Shown: piece by piece, positions 2 through 11,070 of the stretch
Layout: each line of letters starts with the position of its first letter
Numbering within the stretch: the first letter of the stretch is position 1
Assembly: GCA_963771275.1 (NCBI GenBank)
Contig: CAVYSW010000008.1
Coordinates: forward strand, 1 to 11,275
Direction of reading: 5' to 3'
DNA length: 11,275 nt
DNA from: an uncultured Gemmatimonadales bacterium
GTDB lineage: Bacteria; Gemmatimonadota; Gemmatimonadetes; Gemmatimonadales; GWC2-71-9
Notes under the pieces: generated by a model
Database searches by the model: none
The model's input: only the letters and a program-made list of their open reading frames with translations
Told to the model about the DNA's origin: nothing
Position numbers and translations under genes: made by a program

Positions 2-253
2 GACTACATGTACTCGGTGTGGGGCACCTCCTCGGCGGACGTGTATGCGGTGGGCTGCACGTACACCTCCGTGGGGAATCTGTACGAGGCAACGGTCATT
101 CACTACAACGGCACGAGCTGGACCGAGCAAATGCGGCGTTCCACGGGGATGGACGGGACTTCCAGTTGCGACCTCCATGGAGTCTGGGGCAGCTCACCCA
201 CCCAGGTCTTCGCCGTTGGCGGCTACGGAACGGTGTTCCACGGAACGCGGTGA
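2..253 (+). CDS. C-terminal part of a WG-S-repeat (beta-propeller-like) extracellular protein, 5'-truncated by the window edge
   Basis: The frame is open from base 2 to TGA at 251-253. It carries two copies of the repeat motif, VWGTSSADVYAVG and VWGSSPTQVFAVG, separated by HYNGTSW, which is typical of repeat beta-propeller surface proteins. Confidence 0.7.
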   Translation, partial: DYMYSVWGTSSADVYAVGCTYTSVGNLYEATVIHYNGTSWTEQMRRSTGMDGTSSCDLHGVWGSSPTQVFAVGGYGTVFHGTR

Positions 254-434
254 GGGCGGCCATCGAGACATGCTGCCGGCGCTCGGCTTCGGGTCGTCAG
301 AGTGATAGGGGCGTACCTGTTGGGCACGTGCAACAGCACCCTCGTTCCCATGCTCCCGTGTGAAGGTTGCGGACTGGGCCGTCAGGGTGAAGTATTGCGA
401 ATCCGACTCCGCTAGCGACGAGTGCCCAGCCATT

Positions 435-439
435 GGAGG
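435..439 (+). promoter_or_regulatory. Shine-Dalgarno site for the metallopeptidase
   Basis: GGAGG at 435-439 lies 5 nt before ATG 445, which favours 445 over the TTG at 433 as the start. Confidence 0.6.
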
Positions 440-444
440 CGACG

Positions 445-2148
445 ATGCAGCCTGTTGTCCGGCACCTCACGTGGACCCTCGCGGTATGCGCCGTGCCGCT
501 CCTCGCCAACGGTTGTTCCGACCTGCCGGTCGACGGGTCCCCCCCGGCCGTGACTCCGGCCGGCCCCAGCGCGTGGCGGAACTTCGCGGTCGCCGTCACC
601 TGTACCGCGAGCGTCGCGGAGAGCAGCCTTACCTGCAAGCAGCCTCGTCCAGGCCCCGGCGCCCTCGGGCCGAACTTCCTGATCGTGGGTGGGCAGAACC
701 AGTTCGTCCGGCTCGCGTCCAGCGGCGTGAGCTACGACGGGAGCGACATCTTCCAGGCCAACGTGACCGTGACGGTCCTGTTCGGTCAGCCAATGGGTAC
801 GACGGACGGGGTGACGAGCACCGGCGTGCGGGTGTTCTTCCACAGCGGACCAACGATGACCGGCGGCTCCGGCGTGGTGACCGTGGCCAATGCGGACGGA
901 ACGGACACGTTCACCGGCACAGACCAGCCGTACCACCTGTACCCCCAGATCCTGTCCACCAACACCCCCTCGGCACCCAAGACGTGGCGGTGGCATGTAC
1001 CGCCCACGGTCACGACGTTCGAGTTCGAGGTCTACGTCGAGGGCGACGTCGTCTACCCGGACGGATGGGTCGTGGTGCAGCCGCATCCGTGGTACGTCAT
1101 GCCGGGAGGACAGCTCCAACTCGGGGCAACCGTCCTCGACGTCGTCACCCGTGACGTTGGGGGCGCGGTCACCTGGTCCTCCGGGGACGACGCGATCGCG
1201 ACGGTCGACGGCACCGGCCTGGTGGGGGGTGTCGCGCCCGGCGTCGTGGACATCGCAGCGTCGAACGGCGGGCCCCAGGCGGACGGCTTTTCGCGGGTCA
1301 CCGTGCTCGGCAGCGGCTTCAACATCGCGCTCCGCCTCTGGCCCGGCACGCCGGCACCGACGCAGTCCATCCTGGACGCGTTCACGAACGCCAAGGGACG
1401 GTGGGAATCGTTGATCACGGGCGACCTGCAGGCCGTGCTGCTGCACCAGGCGGCCATCCCGTGCGCACCGGCCCTCAACGAGGTGATCGACGACCTGTTG
1501 ATCTTCATGGCCGTGGTGCCGATCGACGGCCCCGGGGGAATCTTGGGGCAGGCCGGCCCATGTTATTACCGCAATTCTGGATCCCTGCCAATAACGGGTA
1601 AGATGGAGTTCGACGTCGCCGACCTGGCTGATCTGCAGGCAGCGGGTCAGTTGGAAGACGTGATCGTGCACGAGATGGGGCACGTGCTCGGGTTCGGAGT
1701 CTTCTGGGGCGGGTTAGGATTGCTGGTACCCAGCACGTGCAGTGGGACGTCGGTGGACCCATATTTCAACGGTGCCTCCGCCCAGGCCGCATTTGACGCG
1801 GCCGGCGGCACAAGCTACAGCGGCAACAAGGTACCGGTCGAGAACACCGGTGGTGCAGGCACGGTCTGCAGTCACTGGCGCGAGAGCGTGCTCGGCAACG
1901 AATTGATGACGGGATGGCTCGATGCGGGCGCGAGTCCGCTCAGCGCGATCACCGTGCAATCCCTGGCCGACATGGGGTACACCGTGGACGCGTCCGGCGC
2001 CGATTCGTATACTCTGCCATCGGCGCCGGGGCCGGCCCTGCGCACGGGGGCAGTCGCCCTCAACAACGATATCCGCCCGGGGCCCTTCTACATGGTGGAC
2101 GAGCAAGGCCGGGTGACGGTGATGACGGCGCCGCGGCGGCGGCCCTGA
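445..2148 (+). CDS. Lipoprotein leishmanolysin-like (M8 family) zinc metallopeptidase with an N-terminal beta-rich domain and an Ig-like (Big_2) domain
   Basis: Signal peptide with lipobox LLANG-C. Ig-like motif VTWSSGDDAIATVDGTGLV. Catalytic domain with IDGPGGILGQAGP, zinc motif HEMGH (1669-1683), third ligand in CSHW (His at 1873) and Met-turn NELMTG (Met at 1906). Confidence 0.85.
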   Translation: MQPVVRHLTWTLAVCAVPLLANGCSDLPVDGSPPAVTPAGPSAWRNFAVAVTCTASVAESSLTCKQPRPGPGALGPNFLIVGGQNQFVRLASSGVSYDGSDIFQANVTVTVLFGQPMGTTDGVTSTGVRVFFHSGPTMTGGSGVVTVANADGTDTFTGTDQPYHLYPQILSTNTPSAPKTWRWHVPPTVTTFEFEVYVEGDVVYPDGWVVVQPHPWYVMPGGQLQLGATVLDVVTRDVGGAVTWSSGDDAIATVDGTGLVGGVAPGVVDIAASNGGPQADGFSRVTVLGSGFNIALRLWPGTPAPTQSILDAFTNAKGRWESLITGDLQAVLLHQAAIPCAPALNEVIDDLLIFMAVVPIDGPGGILGQAGPCYYRNSGSLPITGKMEFDVADLADLQAAGQLEDVIVHEMGHVLGFGVFWGGLGLLVPSTCSGTSVDPYFNGASAQAAFDAAGGTSYSGNKVPVENTGGAGTVCSHWRESVLGNELMTGWLDAGASPLSAITVQSLADMGYTVDASGADSYTLPSAPGPALRTGAVALNNDIRPGPFYMVDEQGRVTVMTAPRRRP

Positions 2149-2193
2149 GGCACCGGACGCCAAGCGATCGAACCGACAACGAGCGCGGACTAC

Positions 2194-2199
2194 GAGGAG
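2194..2199 (+). promoter_or_regulatory. Shine-Dalgarno site for the precursor peptide
   Basis: GAGGAG lies 7 nt upstream of ATG 2207. Confidence 0.7.
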
Positions 2200-2206
2200 T
2201 CATACG

Positions 2207-2389
2207 ATGAAGCCCACCAACCAGCAGTCGCGAACGCCGCCGGATGACTCGCTCCGGGGACCGGGACGCAGGCAGTGGACCCCCCCGACGGTGGAGGAGC
2301 TGCCGAAGCTGACCGACCTCACGCTCCTGACGGGAGACCCGATCGGCGGCGGCGGCGGCACCGGGGGCGGAGGGTCGTCGGTGTTCTAG
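2207..2389 (+). CDS. Putative RiPP precursor peptide (60 aa) with a lasso-type leader and a Gly-rich core
   Basis: Strong RBS. WTPPTVEELPKLTDLTL matches the spacing of the lasso/RRE leader motif (Y/W)xxPxLxxxGxxxxxTx at W24, P27, V29 and T39, with Pro at the Gly position. The C-terminus is LTGDPIGGGGGTGGGGSSVF. It sits directly upstream of the radical SAM gene, in an operon with PqqD and B2. Confidence 0.85.
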   Translation: MKPTNQQSRTPPDDSLRGPGRRQWTPPTVEELPKLTDLTLLTGDPIGGGGGTGGGGSSVF

Positions 2390-2392
2390 GCC

Positions 2393-3400
2393 GTGCCGAT
2401 GCTCGTAGGCTTTGCCGTCACGGAGCACTGCAACCTGCGGTGCCCGCACTGCATCCGCGACGACGTCACCACCGTACGCTCGCTCGAGCCCGAGCTGATC
2501 GTCTCGGTGCTCGATCAGGCTGTGGCCCTGTTCGGGCCGGTCACGGCGAGCTTCACGGGCGGCGAGCCGCTGCTGCACGCCGAGTTCGGCCGCATCGTGG
2601 CGGACTGCTCTGCCCGCGACGTGCCGTACCGCTTCGTCACCAACGCCTGGCACTTGAAGCGGGCCGTCCCGCTGCTGCGCCGCCATCGCCCGCAATCCGT
2701 GCGGCTGAGCCTCTCCGGGGCGAGCGAAGCCACCCATGACGCCGAGCGCGGCCAGGGGAGCTTCCGCCGGGTCCTGCTCGGCGCGGCGCTGCTCACGAAC
2801 GAGCGGATTCCCGCGTACCTGTCGATCGTGATCGACCGCAGGAACCGCCACGAGCTCCGGACCGCCGCGGACCTCGCCGAGCAGCTGGGGTGCCTCGGCA
2901 TCGGGTTCATCCTGCCGCAGCCGACGCCCGGCAGCGCCGCGCGGAACAGCGATCTCCCACCCGAGGAGTGGGTGGCGACGGTGCGTGCGGTCCAAGCGCT
3001 CGCCGCTGAACCGGGACGACGGTCGGCGGTGACTCTGGACTACGGCCACCCGTTCGAGGGCGCCGAGGCCCCGTGCGAGACCTTCGCGCGGCAGCGGATT
3101 TACGTGGACACCAAGGGCCGGCTCTGCACCTGCTGCCAGCTCTCCGGGTTCGGCTTCAACGAGACTGAGGTCGTCGCCGATCTGCACGACGTCTCGCTGG
3201 CAGAGGCGTACGAGCGATACGCTCATCGGGTCGAGGCGCTGCGCCGGGCCCAGCGACCTGTCATCGGGAGTCCGCACCTCACCGATCCGTTCCCCTGCCT
3301 CCGGTGCTGCGTTGCGAGCGGGAAGCTCGAGTGGCTCTCCCAGCACCCGGGGTCGCACTGGCACCGCGCCGCGCTGCGGACGGTCACGTCGGCGGCGTGA
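2393..3400 (+). CDS. Radical SAM enzyme with a C-terminal SPASM/twitch-like Cys-rich region, probable peptide maturase
   Basis: CNLRCPHC (CxxxCxxC, 2429-2452), FTGGEPLL and FVTNA motifs. C-terminal PC...IYVDTKGRLCTCC...CLRCC. The start is GTG 2393 or ATG 2399. Confidence 0.92.
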   Translation: MPMLVGFAVTEHCNLRCPHCIRDDVTTVRSLEPELIVSVLDQAVALFGPVTASFTGGEPLLHAEFGRIVADCSARDVPYRFVTNAWHLKRAVPLLRRHRPQSVRLSLSGASEATHDAERGQGSFRRVLLGAALLTNERIPAYLSIVIDRRNRHELRTAADLAEQLGCLGIGFILPQPTPGSAARNSDLPPEEWVATVRAVQALAAEPGRRSAVTLDYGHPFEGAEAPCETFARQRIYVDTKGRLCTCCQLSGFGFNETEVVADLHDVSLAEAYERYAHRVEALRRAQRPVIGSPHLTDPFPCLRCCVASGKLEWLSQHPGSHWHRAALRTVTSAA

Positions 3401-4569
3401 TGCCTCGGTCTCGTGAGTGCGTTGCCGAGCGCCTCCCAAGCGGGAAGCGCCGAGCAAGCACGCTGGTCTGCTGCCTGTGCGGCGCACTTGCGTGCGGTGA
3501 CTCCACGGGCCCTGACGCGCTCGCCATCGAGATCGCCGGCCGCCTGGAGCGCAGTGCCGTGGTGACCCTGAGCGCGAGCTTCGAGGGGACGCTCCTGGCC
3601 GATTCCGCGGTCACCTGGACCGCCGAGCCGGCCGGTGCCGTGATGTTCCTCGGAGGAGGCATCGCCACACTCGCCCAGGTAGGGCAAGTCACCCTCTCCG
3701 CGCATGCGGCGGTCGGAACCGGTGAGCGCACGATAACGGTGGCGACGCCGCCGACCATCGTGTTCGACCTGCTGCGCGACGGGAACCGCGACATCTATCG
3801 GGTAGCGCTCGATGGCGGGGACCTGGCGCGCCTCACCACCGACCCGGGGGACGACGGCGATCCGACGGCCGTGGGCGACCGCGTCGTCTTCGTCAGCTAT
3901 CGGGATGGGAACGGCGAGCTGTATGCGACATCGCTGAGCGGAGGGGCGCCCACGAGGCTCACGTTCACCGACGTGGCCGAAGCGGGACCGGCACTGTCGC
4001 GGGACGGCGCGTGGCTGGCCTACACCAGGACCGATGGGGGAGTACCCAAGCTGTGGGTGTCACTGTCCAACGGCGGGGGGGCGAGCCCGGGTCACCGGGA
4101 GCTTCGGGTTCGCGGGCTCGATCGAGGCGAGCCCGTCCTGGGCTCCGAGCGGGGATCGTCTGGCCTTCGTGTCCACGTCCGAGGGGACGGCGGACCTGTT
4201 CACCTATGCGGTATCCACTGGAGCGTTCGCCCCGCTCGTGCCGGACTCGGCGGCGCGCGCGGAGGTGGAGCCCGCGTGGAGTCCCGATGGCGCGTGGGTG
4301 GCGTTTGCGACCGACCGCCCCGGCGATACCGAGATCTACCTGCTCGAGGTCGCGACGGGCGAGCTGCGTCGCCTGACCAATCGTCCCGATAGCGATGGAC
4401 AGCCGACCTGGGTGCCGGACGGGCGGCTGGTGTACGTCGCCTGGACCGGGGCGCTCCCGGCCTCCGCTGGCTCGATCCGCAGGTACCGAGCGAGATTCAC
4501 GACATCGACGTCGGGCCGGGCGAGCCACGCCACCCGGCCGGCGTTCTCCCGCTACCGGCGAGCCAATGA
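3400..4569 (+). CDS. TolB-like (PD40-repeat) beta-propeller lipoprotein, interrupted by two apparent frameshifts (~4087 and ~4450)
   Basis: ATG 3400 overlaps the radical SAM stop (TGATG). Lipobox GALA-C-GDSTGP. Repeats include RDGNRDIY, VFVSYRDGNGELY, PALSRDGAWLAY, PSWAPSGDRLAFVS and EPAWSPDGAWVAFATDRPGDTEIY. The reading frame goes 1, then 2 (extra C near 4087), then 1 again (missing G in the run at 4448-4451), and ends LRWLDP...PASQ* at TGA 4567-4569. Confidence 0.8.
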
Positions 4570-4844
4570 GCGACGGCGCACCCGCTCCGCGATACGCGGT
4601 CTCGAAGGACGTGCTGACCGCCCATCTCGAGGGTGAAGCCGTGTTGCTGCACCTCGAGACCAAGCAGTACTACCGACTCAACGAAACCGCGGCGGCCATC
4701 TGGCGGGGCCTGGAGGGCGGCCTGGATCCGGCCGACATCGTTGGGGGCCTCGTCAAGGACTTCGAGATCGACGCCGCGACCGCTGAAGCCGAGGTCGAGC
4801 GGGTGCTCGGCGATCTGCGCGAACGGGGTCTCCTCGCATCGTGA
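4566..4844 (+). CDS. PqqD-family RiPP recognition element (lasso B1/E-like), 92 aa
   Basis: ATG 4566 forms an ATGA overlap with the upstream stop. The sequence LEGEAVLLHLETKQYYRLNETAAAIW...AEVERVLGDLRERGLL is a typical PqqD/RRE pattern. Confidence 0.93.
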   Translation: MSDGAPAPRYAVSKDVLTAHLEGEAVLLHLETKQYYRLNETAAAIWRGLEGGLDPADIVGGLVKDFEIDAATAEAEVERVLGDLRERGLLAS

Positions 4845-5230
4845 CGAGCCGTTTGCTCGAGATGGCGATCGGGACCGGCGCCGCACTCCGCAGTCCCCTG
4901 TGGATCACGGGCTCGCGCCTGCAACGGCTGCTGCAGGACACCCCCGGCGTCTCGCGGGGCTCCCGTCATCCCGAGACTGCGACGCGAGCTTCTCTGCTCG
5001 CCCTGAGGGCGCTCGCGCGCCTTCCCCTGCTCCCGTGGCGGAATACGTGCCTCTACCGCAGCGTCGCCGAGTGTCTCGTGCTGCGGAGCTGCGGGATCGG
5101 CTGCCGGCTGCAACTCGGCGTGTCGCACGACGCCGCGTCGGGTGACGGGATCGTGGCCCACGCGTGGGTGGAGCGCAGTGACCGAGAGCAGGCCGATCAC
5201 CCTCACGTCCTGCTGCGCCCTGGTTCGTGA
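4841..5230 (+). CDS. Lasso peptide B2-type transglutaminase-like leader peptidase
   Basis: GTGA-coupled to PqqD. Motifs NTCLYRS (Cys at 5048), LQLGV and AHAWVE (His at 5159) are diagnostic of the Transglut_core3/B2 family. Confidence 0.9.
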   Translation: MTSRLLEMAIGTGAALRSPLWITGSRLQRLLQDTPGVSRGSRHPETATRASLLALRALARLPLLPWRNTCLYRSVAECLVLRSCGIGCRLQLGVSHDAASGDGIVAHAWVERSDREQADHPHVLLRPGS

Positions 5231-6192
5231 GCATTCGTGGAGACGACGGGCAGATCGCGCACGCGTTGCTGGCAGATCAATCGCTCGTGCTGCGGTCGGA
5301 CCCCCGCTGCTGGCCCCTCGTCCAGCCGTGGGTGCCGCTGAGCTGCGATCCGGCAGAAGCGGGCGCACCACCTCGCGCCGTCGTGGCGGTCGAACCCATG
5401 CAGTCCCCGGCACCGGCATCGGGACAGGTCGGGCTACCCACACTGCAAGTTGGGCCCGTCCGTGCGTGGCTCGACGCCTCAGCGGCAAGCGTGGTGCTGA
5501 GGGGGGCCACGGGCAGCTCGGGCCGGCTCGACCTCGAGGCGCTTCGCGCCACGCTGTGGGCAGACCTCGCTGCGGGCGAGGCAGCCGGTGCCGACCTCTA
5601 CTCCATGCTCACTATCGCGGCGGCGCTGCTGCTCGGCAGGATGCGACGGCCCGTGATCCATGCCGGAGCGGTCGTGGCACCTGATGGGAAGGGTTGGCTC
5701 GTCGTGGGTGATGCGCGGTCGGGCAAGTCCACAGCGTGCGTGAGCCTGGCGAGCAGCGGCTGGGGACTGCTGTCGGACGACCAGGTGGTGCTCACGCCGA
5801 ACGGCCCCACGCTCGAAGTCGAGGGTTGGCTGCGACCCGTGCATCTCGACGAGGGATGGAACGACGGGATACCGCGGGGCAGCCGCCGCACCGTGCACCC
5901 CTCCGAGCTGGGCGCCGGCGCGACGCGCCGCGTCGTGCCGCTTGCCGGCACCGTGCACACGTCCGTCGATCCTGCCCAACCGACGCGCGTCTCCGAGATT
6001 TCGGCGGGTGATGCGTTCACGGGACTGGTCCGCCAGTCCCCGTGGCTCCTTGCCGACCGCGTGGTGGCGCCGTCGCTGGTCGACATCTTGTCGGCCGTCG
6101 CACACCTGCCGCGGTTCTCCTTGCGCTTGGGGCTGGATACGTTCGGCAGGCCAGACCGGGTGCAAGCGTTGCTTACGCCGGCGCTGTTCTAG
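5227..6192 (+). CDS. HPr-kinase-like P-loop kinase (PadeK/ThcoK-like peptide kinase family)
   Basis: GTGA-coupled to B2. Motifs IHAGAV, Walker A GDARSGKST (5707-5733) and LLSDD. Confidence 0.85.
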   Translation: MSIRGDDGQIAHALLADQSLVLRSDPRCWPLVQPWVPLSCDPAEAGAPPRAVVAVEPMQSPAPASGQVGLPTLQVGPVRAWLDASAASVVLRGATGSSGRLDLEALRATLWADLAAGEAAGADLYSMLTIAAALLLGRMRRPVIHAGAVVAPDGKGWLVVGDARSGKSTACVSLASSGWGLLSDDQVVLTPNGPTLEVEGWLRPVHLDEGWNDGIPRGSRRTVHPSELGAGATRRVVPLAGTVHTSVDPAQPTRVSEISAGDAFTGLVRQSPWLLADRVVAPSLVDILSAVAHLPRFSLRLGLDTFGRPDRVQALLTPALF

Positions 6193-7344
6193 CACCACCC
6201 TTCCCCCTCGCGCGGGCCGACAAGACAGCGGCGGCCAGGGCGAGCGGAAGCCCGAAGGCCATCCCGATCGCCACACGCAGGACTCTCGCAGCAACTCTGA
6301 CACCCCGGCCGAGTCGCGGTGCCCGCCGCTCGATCCATGCAATGGGGGGTGACAACGAGACGCCCGTGGTGACCGCCCGCACCCGGTCCCACTCGGTGCG
6401 CATCTCGGCCCGGCCCGCGAGAAGCGCAACCGCCCACCTCCCGACGTCGCCGCGGACCACCTCTGGGAGGGGGAGCCACCGGCCCTGCTGGCGTACCGAG
6501 GCGGACACGGCAGCCTGGTACGTGAACCTGTCTTCAAGCGGCGCCGTGCCGGCTAGCGCTTGGGCCATGAACAGCATGTCGCGCAGCGTGAGCGCATGCG
6601 CGTCACACGCGATCTGCGCCTCGACATCCGCCAGTTCTGACTTACTGCACTGAGCCAGGGCCCAACTCACCAGCAGCAGGTCCCGAATTGCCCCCCTCCG
6701 GTAGGCGTGGAGCGCACCAACGTGCACGAGGAGGTGCCAGAGATGGTCCCTGGCACCCAGGCGACGGAGACCGGTCGCGCCGGCCAGCGGGGTGACCCGG
6801 CTCCAGATGGACTCGGACCAGTCGCACCCCACCATGTCGATCTTGGCGTGGACCTCGACCGGGAGCCCGGCCCCCGCGGCGATCCTCCCCTTGAGGTGGA
6901 ACGGACTACTGGGCCCAACGTCACGGTAGCCGGTGGAGTCGAGAGCCGCAGCAAGCGCCCGGGCATCGTCCGGCCTTGCCAGGACGTCGATATCTGCCAA
7001 GTCCACCGGGTTCTGGTCGGTCAGCGCCGCGACGCCACCCTTGAGCACCACCACCTCCCAGCCGTGTTCCGCCGCCAGGCGATCGATCAGCTGCAGCTGC
7101 GCCCGCGCGCTGAGCACCCGCTGCAGCTCAGTCCGGGCGGCGTGTCGAGCAGCAGCTGGGATTCCTGGTCGAGCAACGCGCGCTGGCCGCTCGCGACGAG
7201 GCGGCCCTTGAGCGGCAGCGCACATCGCTCGGTACGGAGAAAGAGGCCCCAGGAAGCGGGGGAGCATCGAGGCGGCGCTGAAGGGGCGCGCGCGAGACTC
7301 TGGAGCACCCAGGCCCGCAGGTCGAGGACTTCACTGATTCGCAT
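6173..7344 (-). CDS. Nucleotidyltransferase family protein (NTP_transf_5-like), with one apparent frameshift near 7140
   Basis: Motifs VVLKGG, DLADIDVLA, VEVH and HLLVH in ORF 6173-7267. The plausible N-terminus MRISEVLDLRAWVL...ESQLLLDT lies in another frame (ATG 7344, or an alternative start at 7404) and joins AARTELQR if one G is restored near 7140. Confidence 0.8.
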
Positions 7345-7654
7345 TTCATCCGCCAGGGCGACCGGTTGGGCTCGATGCGCCAAGAATATGCCCCGGGGGA
7401 TCACACCGCGAGGTCGAAGGCCTCCAGATCGCTCGAAGGCCGTCTCACGGCCGGCCTTCTTGGCCCCAGTTGGCCGATCTCCCCTCGCTAGTCCATTGAC
7501 CGGCCGCTACGTAGGCGTGATGTTTTCGAGGCTTGCTGATTTCGAGCGTCTCGATGGAGCCGCGGCGATGTGCTGGCATCATGGTACGCGCCGTGCTTAC
7601 CTTAGCCGCCGCCATTGCACTTCCTCTCGAGCCTACAGGGACGGCTGAGTGAGC

Positions 7655-8541
7655 ATGCGAAAGGGAATCATCCTGGCCGGTGGGTCCGGCACGCGTCTCT
7701 ACCCGATCACGCGGGCGGTGAGCAAGCAGATGCTCCCCGTGTACGACAAGCCGATGATTTATTTCCCGCTGACGACGCTGATGCTGGCCGGCATCCGGGA
7801 CCTGCTCCTCATCTCCACGCCGACCGACCTGCTGGGCTTCCAGCGCCTGCTCGGGGACGGCTCCGCGTGGGGACTGAGCCTGTCCTACGCGGAGCAGCCG
7901 TCGCCGGATGGGATCGCGCAAGCGTTTCTGATCGGGCGGGAGTTCGTCGGCGGCGCGCCCAGCTGTCTGGTCCTCGGTGACAATCTGTTCTATGGCAACG
8001 ACCTCACGGCGGCCCTGCGGCGCGCGGACGCGCGGGCCAGGGGCGCGACGGTGTTCGGCTACCACGTGCGCCGATCCCGCGCGCCTACGGCGTGATCGAG
8101 TTCGACGGCACGGGGCGCGCGGTCAGCATCGAGGAGAAACCCGAACGGCCGCGCTCGCACCACGCCGTGACGGGTCTCTACTTCTACGACGAGCGGGCGT
8201 GCGACTTCGCCGCCGCGCTGACCCCGTCGCCCCGGGGGGAGCTGGAGATCACCGACCTGAACCGTCGCTACCTCGAGGACGGCTCGCTGCACGTCGAGGT
8301 CCTGCGGCGCGGGACGGCGTGGCTCGATACCGGGACGCCGGAATCCCTGCTCCAGGCCGGCCAGTTCATCGAGACGATCGAGCAGCGCCAGGGGCTGCCG
8401 CATCGCCTGCCCGGAGGAGATCGCGTTTCGCATGGGCTTCATCGATGCGCGCGCAGCTCGAGGCGCTCGCCGCGCCGCTCGCGCGCACCGCGCTACGGCC
8501 GGTACCTGCTCGACGTGCTCGCCGAGAGTCGCGGCTCGTGA
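7655..8541 (+). CDS. rmlA: Glucose-1-phosphate thymidylyltransferase (frameshifted in this sequence)
   Basis: [59 protein letters not shown] and WLDTGT. Frame breaks occur near 8070-8085 and 8400-8490. Confidence 0.95.
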
Positions 8542-9091
8542 ACGTCCGCCGGACGGCGCTGGAGGGCGTCCTCGTGCTCGAGCCCCGCATCTTCGCGGAC
8601 GGCCGGGGCGCGTTTCTCGAGACGTGGCACGCCGAACGCTATGCCGAGGCCGGGATCTCCCGGTCCATTCGTGCAGGACAATCTCAGTCGATCGGTGCGC
8701 GGCACGTGCTCCGCGGGCTGCACTATCAGGTCGAGCAGCCGCAGGGGAAGCTGGTGTGGGCGGTCGCGCGGCGAGATCTTCGACGTGGCCGTGGACCTGC
8801 GGCGCTCGTCGCCGACCTTCGGCCGGTGGATCGGCGAACGGCTGTCGGGCGACAACGGCTGCCAGCTCTGGATCCCGCCCGGGTTCGCGCACGGCTTCCT
8901 CACCCTCTCGGAGCGCGCGCACGTGGCGTACAAGTGCACGGCGCCCTACGCCCCGGCACACGAGCGCACCCTGCGATGGGACGACCCCACGCTGAGCATC
9001 GCGTGGCCCCTGCCGGACGGGCGTCGCGCCGATCGTCTCCGAGAAGGACGCCGGGGGACTGACGCTGGCCGAGGCGCCCTGCTTCCCGTGA
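8538..9091 (+). CDS. rmlC: dTDP-4-dehydrorhamnose 3,5-epimerase (frameshifted in this sequence)
   Basis: GTG 8538 in a GTGA overlap. Motifs [59 protein letters not shown] and SEKD are spread across frames. Stop TGA at 9089-9091. Confidence 0.93.
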
Positions 9092-9963
9092 CGCGCGTGC
9101 TGGTCACCGGTGCGCTCGGCCAGCTCGGCAGCGAGCTGCGGCGCACGGTCCCGCCGGGCCACGAGATCGTGGCCCTCGACCTGCCGGACTTCGATCTGAC
9201 GCACGCGGCCGACGTCCGGCGCGTCGTCCACGATGCGGCGCCGCACGCGATCATCAACGCCGCCGCCTACACCGCCGTGGACCAGGCCGAAGACGAGCCG
9301 CGACCTGGCCCGCGCGGTGAACGTGGATGGCGCCGCCGCGATCGCCGCGCGCAGCCGTCGAGGCCGGCGCCCGACTGATCCACGTGTCCACCGACTACGT
9401 GTTCGACGGAACGGCCGGCCGCCCGTATCGCGCGGACGATCCGGTCTGCCCCACCAGCGTGTACGGCGAAACCAAGGCGGCGGGAGAGCGTGCGGTGCTG
9501 GAGGCCACGGGAGGCGATGCCGCGGTGGTGCGCACCGCCTGGTTGTACTCCGCGACCGGCAACAACTTCGTGAAGACCATGCTGCGCCTGCTGGGCAGCC
9601 GGGACCAGGTGGGCGTCGTGGCGGACCAGATCGGCTCGCCGACCTGGGCGCGCGGCCTCGCGGTGGCACTGTGGCGCCTGCTGGAGGCCCCCGACGCACG
9701 GGGCAGTCCACCACTGGACCGACGCGGGCGTCGCGAGCTGGTACGATCTGGCGGTGGCGGTGGCGGAGGAAGGACGGGCCCTGGGTCTGTTGAAGCAACC
9801 CGGAGCGGTGCGGCCCATCACGACCGCCGAGTACCCGACCCGCGCGCGCCGCCCCGCGTACAGCGTGCTGCAGCGGAGTCCCGTGTGGGAGGCACTCGGC
9901 GTCCCCGCGGCCCATTGGCGAACCCAGCTGCGCGGCATGCTCGGAGAGCTGGCACATGGCTAA
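9088..9963 (+). CDS. rmlD: dTDP-4-dehydrorhamnose reductase (frameshifted in this sequence)
   Basis: VLVTGALGQLG, INAAAYTAVDQAE, HVSTDYVFDG, YGETKAAGE, VVADQIGSPT and RPAYSVL. Stop TAA at 9961-9963. Confidence 0.93.
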
Positions 9964-11070
9964 CCTGCTCGTCACCGGCGGTGCCGGCTTCATCGGCGCA
10001 ATTTCGTGCACTACTGGCTGCGCGAGCACCCGGGCGACCGCGCTGGTGGTGCTCGACGCGCTGACCTACGCCGGGCAATCTCGCCAACCTCGCCGCGGCC
10101 GACGGGCATGCCAGGCTTCCACTTCGTCCACGGCGACATCGGCGACGGCGATCTGGTGGAGGCAGCTGCTCAAGCAGCACGCCATCGACACGATCGTGCA
10201 CTTCGCCGCCGAGTCGCCACGTCGATCGCTCGATCCACGGCCCCGGACGACTTCGTGCGCACCAACGTCGTCGGCACCGCCACGCTGCTGCGAGGCCCGC
10301 GCAGTGTGGCTCGAGCGGCGGCGGCTCCGCGAGGCCGGTCCGCTTCCACCACGTCTCGACCGACGAGGTGTACGGCTCGCTTGGGCCCCGACCGGCCGTT
10401 CACGGAAGACGACGCCCTACGCGCCCAACTCGCCGTACGCGGCGAGCAAGGCGGCGTCCGACCACCTGGTGCGCGCCTACCACCACACGTACGGGCTGCC
10501 CGGTCACCACCACCAACTGCTCCAACAACTACGGACCGTACCAGTTCCCGGAGAAGCTGATCCCGCTGATGATCGTGAACGCGCTGGAGGGCGCAGCCGC
10601 TGCCGGTCTACGGCGACGGCCAGAACGTGCGGGATTGGCTGTACGTGGAGGACCACTGCCGCGCGATCGATCGCGTCCTCGAGCGGGCCGAGTCGGCGAG
10701 ACCTACAACGTGGGCGGGCGCACCGAGCGGGCCAACCTCGACCTGGTCCGCGCCCTCTGCGCGCTGATCGACGCGGCAGTTCGCCACGGACCCACGGCTG
10801 CGCGAGCGGTTCCCGCGGCAGCCCGGCGGCCGCGGGCAAGCCCACCGCGTCCCTGATCACGTTCGTGAAGGACCGCCCCGGCCACGACCGGCGCTACGCC
10901 ATCGACGACGCCAAGCTCGCGCGCGGAGCTGGGGTTCTGCCCGCACCAGTCGCTCGACTCGGGCCTCGCGCTCACCGTGGCGTGGTATCTCGGATAACGA
11001 GCCCTGGTGGCGCTCGGTGATGGATGGCAGCTACAAGGACTGGATTCGCCACCATTACGGGGGTCCCTAA
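9956..11070 (+). CDS. rmlB: dTDP-glucose 4,6-dehydratase (heavily frameshifted in this sequence)
   Basis: [73 protein letters not shown] and [14 protein letters not shown]. It ends [15 protein letters not shown] at TAA 11068-11070. Confidence 0.93.

Follow-up and report, generated by a model that had tools for sequence, protein, structure and literature searches.

The window analyzed here is an entire 11,275-bp contig (C8) from the genome of an uncultured Gemmatimonadales bacterium, an assembly of 3.86 Mb in 11 contigs estimated to be 96.7% complete. We consider it probable that a small open reading frame (ORF) on its plus strand, at positions 2207–2389, encodes the precursor of a family of linear, non-lasso peptides made on the ribosome and then modified after translation (RiPPs) of the Gemmatimonadota, which are modified by a radical S-adenosylmethionine (rSAM) enzyme and probably tailored with phosphate. 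The precursor family itself and the synteny around it are solid. Apparently, this family of conserved RiPP-type precursors in the Gemmatimonadota has no earlier description: none was found in the literature searched, from which about 1.7 million PubMed Central (PMC) articles and most subscription journals were missing, and bioinformatic mentions are possible there or in supplements. If the proposal is correct, this would be a RiPP family of a new kind from a phylum that has hardly been explored, in which a lasso-type leader system minus its cyclase is combined with an rSAM enzyme acting on a Cys-free, nearly aromatic-free, Gly-rich core. We know of no characterized rSAM peptide chemistry that obviously suits such a core. 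The idea of cyclase-less pathways like those of the linear polyphosphorylated peptides (LPPs) would then reach beyond the Bacillota, and natural fusions between the precursor and the signal peptide of a metalloprotease would give a concrete handle on the purpose of such peptides.

The 60-residue precursor (MKPT...WTPPTVEELPKLTDLTLLTGDPIGGGGGTGGGGSSVF; full ORF product MKPTNQQSRTPPDDSLRGPGRRQWTPPTVEELPKLTDLTLLTGDPIGGGGGTGGGGSSVF) was delimited from the ORF, an alignment of homologs and the distribution of differences over codon positions. Residues 1–40 (2207–2326) form the leader and residues 41–60 (2327–2386) the predicted core, followed by the stop codon at 2387–2389. A search of 5.8 billion proteins gave 59 candidates, 57 of which, the window's own protein included, matched at E ≤ 0.1. 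The homologs are labeled at most "hypothetical protein", and neither NCBIfam nor Pfam has a model for the precursor. With a family of 57 proteins, the leader and core pattern described below is more than chance. A scan of one genome per species produced 50 loci, in which 54 stretches matched the pattern, 52 were confirmed and 51 precursor ORFs were identified; 49 of the 50 locus titles name Gemmatimonadota lineages and the remaining one an "uncultured bacterium". When a block of 19 leader codons was compared pairwise among its 65 distinct DNA versions, differences at codon positions 1, 2 and 3 numbered 10760, 7643 and 22232, respectively, an excess at the third position that is as expected for a translated gene. 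The window's precursor agrees with the family consensus along its entire length, despite the noisy contig on which it lies.

Pooling all sources, using a regular expression anchored on W..P, gave 114 distinct precursors and 108 unfused cores, to which the core counts below refer. The consensus of the aligned homologs is RRPWVxPxVxELPKLTDLTLQTGxPIGGGGGTGGGGSTVF. Checking which core residues are conserved, as the preliminary description of this DNA (made from the sequence alone) had suggested, we found that L32, L35, L38, T39, I46, G48, G50 and V59 are invariant, and that conservation is 90% or more at W24, P27, P33, T36, D37, L40, G49, G55, G56, S57 and F60, while Asp44 varies (D/S/N/G/F and others). 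Conserved within the core are P-I-[G/P]-G and, towards its end, [G]-[S/T]-[S/T]-V-F; a Gly-rich spacer of variable length bridges the two, and cores range from 13 to 38 residues. The most frequent C-termini are STVF (57 cores), SSVF (27) and GTVF (6). A distant subfamily was found at three loci (L096:11737–12018, L098:11746–12039 and L099:3–308), where the gene order is rSAM, kinase, precursor and the rSAM enzymes are 40–44% identical to the one in the window. Its precursors keep the leader, as RRPW[V/I]AP.L..HASLTALT, and carry a longer, unrelated core that has no Gly run and ends in ...DIPGSTGFFP or ...ICGSISIFCD. The element common to the family and this subfamily is I-x-G...S-[T/I]-x-F, and the retention of I-x-G...S-T-x-F there points to an element required by the rSAM enzyme.

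The preliminary description had proposed a lasso-type leader attached to a core that cannot form a lasso ring, and both halves of this proposal hold. W24, P27, V29 and T39 are separated by 3, 5 and 15 residues from W24 onwards, equal to the spacing in the motif that lasso B1 proteins recognize, Tyr(-17)/Pro(-14)/Leu(-12)/Thr(-2) (PMC10368454). The putative motif for binding by a RiPP recognition element (RRE), W24-T-P-P27-T-V29 (2276–2293, plus strand), was assigned from the alignment and the published motif (PMC10368454, PMC13381572) and reads W(-17)xxP(-14)xV(-12); paeninodin-type lasso leaders likewise contain WxxP (PMC13381572). The residue numbering and coordinates of the preliminary description had been exact, with the W24 codon beginning at 2276 and the stop codon ending at 2389. 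T39, proposed to be Thr(-2), is invariant, and the distance from W to T is 15 residues in 114 of 114 members, with the regular expression permitting just 14–16. The leader–core junction is therefore placed at T39-L40/L41-T42 (2321–2332, plus strand), within which the cleavage and phosphorylation sites are predicted. Cleavage near T42/G43, raised earlier as an alternative, was rejected because in this family of 114 only T39 lies 15 residues from W24, the canonical distance.

With cleavage after L40, the core LTGDPIGGGGGTGGGGSSVF contains 10 Gly, no Cys and a lone aromatic residue, the C-terminal Phe, as described before. Cys occurs in only 2 of the 108 cores, which argues against sactipeptides or ranthipeptides for the family as well as for the window's Cys-free core. 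Triceptides, the three-residue cyclophanes, are formed at an aromatic-X-X motif; since the only aromatic residue of the window core is C-terminal, the core has no such motif and is not a canonical triceptide substrate. A single aromatic residue is found in 86/108 cores. Asp44, at core position 4, is the sole acidic residue, and there is none at positions 7–9, where lasso peptides have their acceptor; across the family, Asp or Glu is found at positions 7–9 in just 9 of 108 cores, and anywhere in the core in 54.

No lasso cyclase was found in the window by NCBIfam or Pfam, and no Asn-synthase homolog was seen among the Pfam-scanned ORFs of two further loci (L046 and L098). The window genome contains five matches to the Asn-synthase domain: two of asnB type, which are the strongest, and three that are both short and weak. 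Of the strongest two, the first reaches 385 bits with TIGR01536 (cut-off 267) and 149 with the lasso cyclase model NF033535 (cut-off 525); the second, a partial gene at a contig edge, scores 81 on the latter against the same cut-off. As no cyclase was found and no acidic acceptor is conserved, a lasso ring is excluded for the family overall.

The proteins that would handle the leader are nevertheless of lasso type. A discrete PqqD-family RRE of the lasso B1 type is encoded at 4566–4844 (plus strand; PF05402, 71.7 bits), with its likely start at M58 of the ORF 4395–4844. It scores 57.4 bits on NF033530, under the cut-off of 70, and its profile matches include TbiB1 (5e-22), the lasso PqqD-family chaperone 9x90_B (1.5e-12), TfuB1 (4e-12) and, more weakly, 9x8z_B (2e-4). 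Next to it lies a lasso-type B2 cysteine protease (4841–5230, plus strand) with a transglutaminase core and NTCLYRS and AHAW motifs, recognized by NF033537 (54.7 bits, cut-off 33) and PF13471 (48.9 bits). The pair of lasso B1 and B2 is thus present, with B1 below its NF033530 cut-off. Beyond a duplicate of the locus on contig C10, no further copy of B1 or B2 was found in the genome, and the other PF13471 match is below the cut-off. Modeling of the leader with the RRE, proposed earlier as a check, lends weak support to binding: the complex scored 0.52, compared to 0.01 for the best of three controls. Of 157 solved complexes, 116 attained the mark used for such scores, as did 2 of 215 mismatched pairs, but no more than 18 of the 157 scored at or below 0.60, where both of the passing mismatches also fell. 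Runs with the RRE and precursor agree in at least 95% of contacts, with a partner pLDDT (predicted local distance difference test) of at least 53. The pass may reflect the predictor's memory of similar solved complexes.

Just downstream of the precursor, the gene at 2393–3400 (plus strand) encodes a 335-residue rSAM enzyme with CxxxCxxC at C13/C17/C20, a C-terminal twitch/partial-SPASM region and no fused RRE. Five auxiliary cysteines only, C228-x13-G242-x4-C247, C248 and C302-x2-C305, are invariant in 34–39 sequences, so that both signatures of SPASM/twitch maturases, the CxxxCxxC motif and a C-terminal auxiliary-cluster motif (Cx9-15Gx4C...), are found. The Pfam SPASM model does not detect the window enzyme and gives 23.8 bits for a homolog from the distant subfamily. 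All NCBIfam matches are far under their cut-offs, the best being ScmF with 66.9 bits against 400, and a sequence search of the Protein Data Bank returned weak matches, the best of them PqqE at 1e-7. The predicted structure has a pLDDT of 90.5, and its closest folds according to Foldseek are BlsE, SuiB, viperin, anSME, PqqE, SkfB and the sactipeptide thioether-forming rSAM enzyme (5wgg/5why). The peptide-modifying enzymes among these match the fold no better than BlsE and viperin, whose substrates are not peptides, and the set of folds points to no particular chemistry. As modeled, the enzyme is a twitch/partial-SPASM protein of an often peptide-modifying kind, without a close characterized relative.

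Which chemistry it might perform can be ranked. Most likely would be epimerization of Ile/Val or a C–C/C–O cross-link, a precedent being the epipeptide enzyme, which acts on Val and Ile. Less likely would be C-terminal chemistry like that of MftC, given that some members of the family end in TVTP, TVIP or VVGG. The variable Gly spacer, within cores of 13–38 residues, argues against one fixed Ile-to-Phe macrocycle, which we therefore regard as unlikely.

Downstream of B2, an HprK-like P-loop kinase with the sequence GDARSGKST is encoded at 5227–6192 (plus strand; TIGR04352 35.9 bits and PF07475 17.1 bits, both sub-threshold) in a conserved position, and a PF14907 (NTP_transf_5) nucleotidyltransferase with a D-I-D metal motif lies at 6173–7267 on the minus strand, convergent with the operon (60.8 bits, cut-off 31.2). 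The residue three after T39, T42 in the window and position 2 of the core, is Thr in 77 cores, Ser in 27, Tyr in three and Met in one, a hydroxyl residue thus occupying this site in 107 of 108, and by analogy with related pathways T42 is a candidate kinase site.

Maps made with tblastn show a recurring gene order: precursor, rSAM, (M8 protease), PD40 propeller, PqqD, (B2), HprK, then the convergent PF14907 NTP_transf_5 gene, where parentheses mark genes that are not always present. A homologous small ORF next to related rSAM/PqqD genes, expected from the preliminary description, is indeed found directly upstream in 16 of 27 rSAM loci of other genomes. Among the remaining 11, three have a clear precursor within ~5 kb (G292, G039 and G025), four carry theirs in another part of the genome (G111, G148, G175 and G101), one (G077) has two precursor copies on other contigs, and for the last three the only matches are weak ones, to precursors that are divergent (E 3.6e-6, 1e-5 and 0.0036). 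In a sample of 401 Gemmatimonadota genomes, using a profile for the precursor and E ≤ 1e-40 for the rSAM enzyme, the latter was detected in 27 genomes and 17 of 147 genera and the precursor in 25 genomes; 24 carry both, one the precursor only (G108) and three the rSAM enzyme only (G097, G170 and G270), these three belonging to the distant subfamily with divergent precursors. The sampled genomes are related, so these counts are not independent trials. The precursor-only genome, which is 96% complete, has a full-length M8 protease adjoining its precursor and no rSAM match at that threshold.

We then compared the cluster with known systems. Its nearest relatives are pathways tailored by a kinase and a nucleotidyltransferase, namely those of the phosphorylated lasso peptides and the LPPs, and not lasso peptides in general. 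The LPPs (Popov et al., Nat Commun 2026, PMC13381572; genes lppAKBSDN in Paenibacillus alginolyticus) are cyclase-less and described as restricted to the Bacillota; their genes encode a precursor, an HprK-like kinase, a discrete RRE, a SipW-type leader peptidase, an exporter and an NTP transferase, their leader motif is YxxPxVLxHQxIxFETxxS, and LppK polyphosphorylates Ser3 of the core. The strings "radical SAM", "rSAM" and "Gemmatimon" do not occur in that paper. Like the LPPs, the present system is cyclase-less and combines a discrete RRE, a [Y/W]xxPx[V/L/I] leader, an HprK-like kinase and a PF14907 NTP transferase, and in both the leader aromatic residue is 15 residues from Thr, with a hydroxyl residue three further on. 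Unlike it, the LPPs are without an rSAM enzyme, have Y-type leaders and long, variable cores, and rely on LppS, a signal peptidase of the SipW type, and on an MsbA-like exporter; no match to either was seen among the window ORFs (Pfam, NCBIfam) or the scanned ORFs of L046 and L098. The Gemmatimonadota loci in turn have a W-type leader, B2 in 13/20 loci, a short, Gly-rich and highly conserved core, and linked M8 and PD40 genes.

With the phosphorylated or phosphoglycosylated lasso peptides (paeninodin, pseudomycoidin and BsfA/K/B1/B2), the system shares the W-type leader, Thr(-2), B1, B2, the HprK-like kinase and PF14907, whereas those pathways have a cyclase, a D/E acceptor at core position 7–9 and usually an ABC exporter, and, in what is described of them, no rSAM enzyme. 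In these pathways BsfK phosphorylates Ser3 in an RRE-dependent manner (PMC10368454), and PsmK and PsmN of pseudomycoidin perform phosphorylation and then addition of a hexose to the phosphate (PMC6993621). Judged by sequence, the half of the cluster that handles the leader and tailors the peptide is homologous to the phosphorylated lasso and LPP pathways; the new parts are the rSAM enzyme, a core rich in Gly and free of Cys, and the partners, protease and propeller. The RRE-Finder paper goes no further than reporting ~300 lasso-type discrete RREs that co-occur with rSAM enzymes.

Other rSAM systems are more remote. SynChlorMet (ScmC/D/E/F; TIGR04248–04251) also has a SPASM/twitch rSAM enzyme, a PqqD-family RRE and an HprK-like protein, but, beside the low ScmF score given above, ScmD reaches 24.4 against a cut-off of 100 and ScmC 21.4 against 125, and the present system differs in its Cys-free Gly-rich core, lasso B2 and tie to an M8 protease. 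In the PQQ (PqqA/D/E) and mycofactocin (MftA/B/C) pathways, as here, a small peptide is accompanied by an rSAM enzyme without a fused RRE and by a separate PqqD-family chaperone, and the V-F pair of our core resembles the V-Y of MftA, which ends in Gly-Val-Tyr. However, the window precursor ends in S-V-F, with Phe and not Tyr, the rSAM enzyme scores 56.4 on TIGR03962 (cut-off 265) and 49.5 on TIGR02109 (cut-off 381), and further mft or pqq genes are lacking.

In the pathway we propose, the discrete B1-type RRE would bind the WxxPx[V/L/I] leader, as its homology suggests and the modeling weakly supports, and would present the peptide to three cytoplasmic enzymes, the rSAM enzyme, the kinase and the PF14907 enzyme. 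The rSAM enzyme would modify the conserved core elements: an Ile, that of P-I-[G/P]-G, as well as [S/T]-[S/T]-V-F at the C-terminus. The HprK-like kinase would probably phosphorylate T42, as LppK and BsfK do Ser3, and the PF14907 enzyme would probably decorate the phosphate, by analogy with PsmN. B2, where present, would cut after T39-L40. No lasso ring would be formed, and the product would act with, or be processed by, an exported M8 metalloprotease and PD40 propeller lipoproteins to which its gene is linked.

Several observations weigh against this pathway. LppK rejected a Ser3Thr variant (PMC13381572), whereas Thr prevails at the aligned site here. The kinase itself matches every curated model below its cut-off, the rest of its assignment coming from the Walker A motif and the conserved position in the cluster. 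Of 20 unique loci, 13 have B2 between the genes for PqqD and the kinase and seven lack it, so leader removal by B2 cannot be general; a PF13471 gene lies elsewhere in two of the genomes without it, and a third yielded none. With a length anywhere between 0 and ~10 residues, the Gly spacer also speaks against one fixed Ile-to-Phe macrocycle. Not every precursor adjoins an rSAM gene: among 43 precursors with at least 1500 nucleotides of downstream sequence, the next gene within 400 nucleotides is the rSAM gene in 23, an M8 protease in 14 and neither in six. No exporter was seen in the window or in the Pfam-scanned ORFs of L046 and L098, which is odd for a secreted natural product. Finally, all genomes in the analysis are metagenome-assembled, and the window contig has apparent frameshifts in its TolB-like gene and in rfbA (7649–8095 and 8092–8541). 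These suggest consensus errors or decay, and inferences from single genes on this contig accordingly need care.

The protease beside the precursor leads to a different view of the peptide. The M8 gene of the window (433–2148, plus strand) encodes a leishmanolysin-like zinc metalloprotease that carries a signal peptide of lipoprotein type, the motif HEMGH and a Big_2 domain. In ordinary pairs the two genes are separate, the protease having its own start codon and signal peptide 40–240 nucleotides downstream of the precursor. In one genome (G292), four tandem ORFs of 817–895 residues without internal stops (L092; G292:C77, 2337–9941) run from leader and core (...GGSTVF) straight into GLLLAVGLLFGVGAC and the M8 protease, in frame; all precursor matches in this genome are such fused forms. 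A second genome of the same genus (G101, contig C95) has three, and a database protein (P0051) shows the same junction; L103, L109, L112 and L114 are also among the stretches concerned. As far as can be read from the ORFs, the precursor in these fusions replaces the n-region of the lipoprotein signal peptide.

The peptide could accordingly be a cytoplasmically modified partner or module of exported M8 lipoproteases and not a free natural product: a modified signal-peptide n-region, a regulator of secretion or activity, or a peptide subunit, with the rSAM enzyme, kinase and nucleotidyltransferase tuning export or function of the protease. Besides the fusions and the M8 genes that follow 14 of the 43 precursors, the lipoprotein-type signals on both protease and propeller and the cluster without a visible exporter fit this account. 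Yet we know of no precedent for it, more than 100 family members stop directly after ...VF, the fused peptide and the protease domain would sit on opposite sides of the membrane, and M8-like proteases occur in 260 of the 401 genomes (counting G057 and G181, flagged as unpublished) as against 25–27 for the precursor or rSAM enzyme. The protease family overall is thus not specific to the system, and the idea that it is restricted to carriers of the system was rejected; only the top full-length M8 matches fall in precursor-bearing genomes. We judge this account unlikely. A narrower form of it, in which the RiPP machinery (RRE, rSAM enzyme, kinase, nucleotidyltransferase and B2) modifies a peptide module of the exported metalloprotease and yields no free product of an antibiotic kind, and the peptide controls or accompanies export, anchoring or activity of the M8 and PD40 pair, is a little more doubtful again. 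The fusions, the loci without B2 and the exporter that was not seen lead us to keep a role in the service of the protease open.

It is also conceivable, though quite improbable, that the peptide is an LPP-like phospho(glyco)peptide only and that the rSAM enzyme acts on the protease, the propeller or a small molecule. The set of kinase, RRE and PF14907 enzyme by itself defines LPPs, the core is devoid of Cys, Trp, Tyr and Lys, the residues of characterized rSAM cross-linkers, and anSME, which matures proteins, is among the closest folds. Against this, the rSAM gene starts 4–77 nucleotides past the precursor stop codon in 22 of 23 adjacent cases and 137 nucleotides past it in the other, 24 of the 25 precursor genomes carry the enzyme, and it has no RRE of its own while a discrete PqqD-type protein is present. 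PqqE with PqqD and MftC with MftB are arranged in the same way. A true lasso peptide with its cyclase encoded elsewhere, to which the lasso-type leader, B1 and B2 and the nine cores with D/E at positions 7–9 might point, is hardly credible when the other 99 cores lack that residue, Asp44 is variable, the strongest Asn-synthases of the genome are asnB-type and none was seen in the scanned ORFs of the window, L046 and L098. We therefore retain the linear, rSAM-modified RiPP as the preferred reading.

Further features of the window concern the quality of the assembly and the partners of the system. The PD40/TolB-like beta-propeller gene (3400–4636, plus strand), whose product is a probable lipoprotein (...GALAC), is split into frames 3304–4392 and 4034–4636 by a frameshift near 4034–4053; at another locus (L013) its frame is unbroken. 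The entire locus, M8 protease through NTP_transf_5, recurs near one end of contig C10 (G000:C10:836210–844200; L002, L003), with 63–100% protein identity to window positions 433–7267 and frameshifts in the precursor (in its Gly run), rSAM enzyme, propeller, kinase and nucleotidyltransferase. This second copy appears to be a strain variant or a duplicate from the assembly and not a true paralog. The rfb genes (7649–11020, dTDP-rhamnose) were considered as a conserved sugar supply and rejected, as rfbA matched the window only, apart from one weak hit (L040). By eye, the rfbB-like ORF (9956–11020) consists of islands of conserved sequence amid out-of-frame stretches. At the other end of the window, positions 2–253 (plus strand) encode the C-terminal end of a gene cut by the contig edge, with repeats of ~39 residues (VWGSS..DVYAVG...HYNGTSW) and no Pfam hit. 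Similar repeats (VWGSS..DVFAVG..GTILHYDGTSW) occur at L026:4749–6419 and L093:10035–11645, where they adjoin an M8 match, mostly just downstream of it on the same strand, and they are probably a beta-propeller-like C-terminal domain of M8 proteases.

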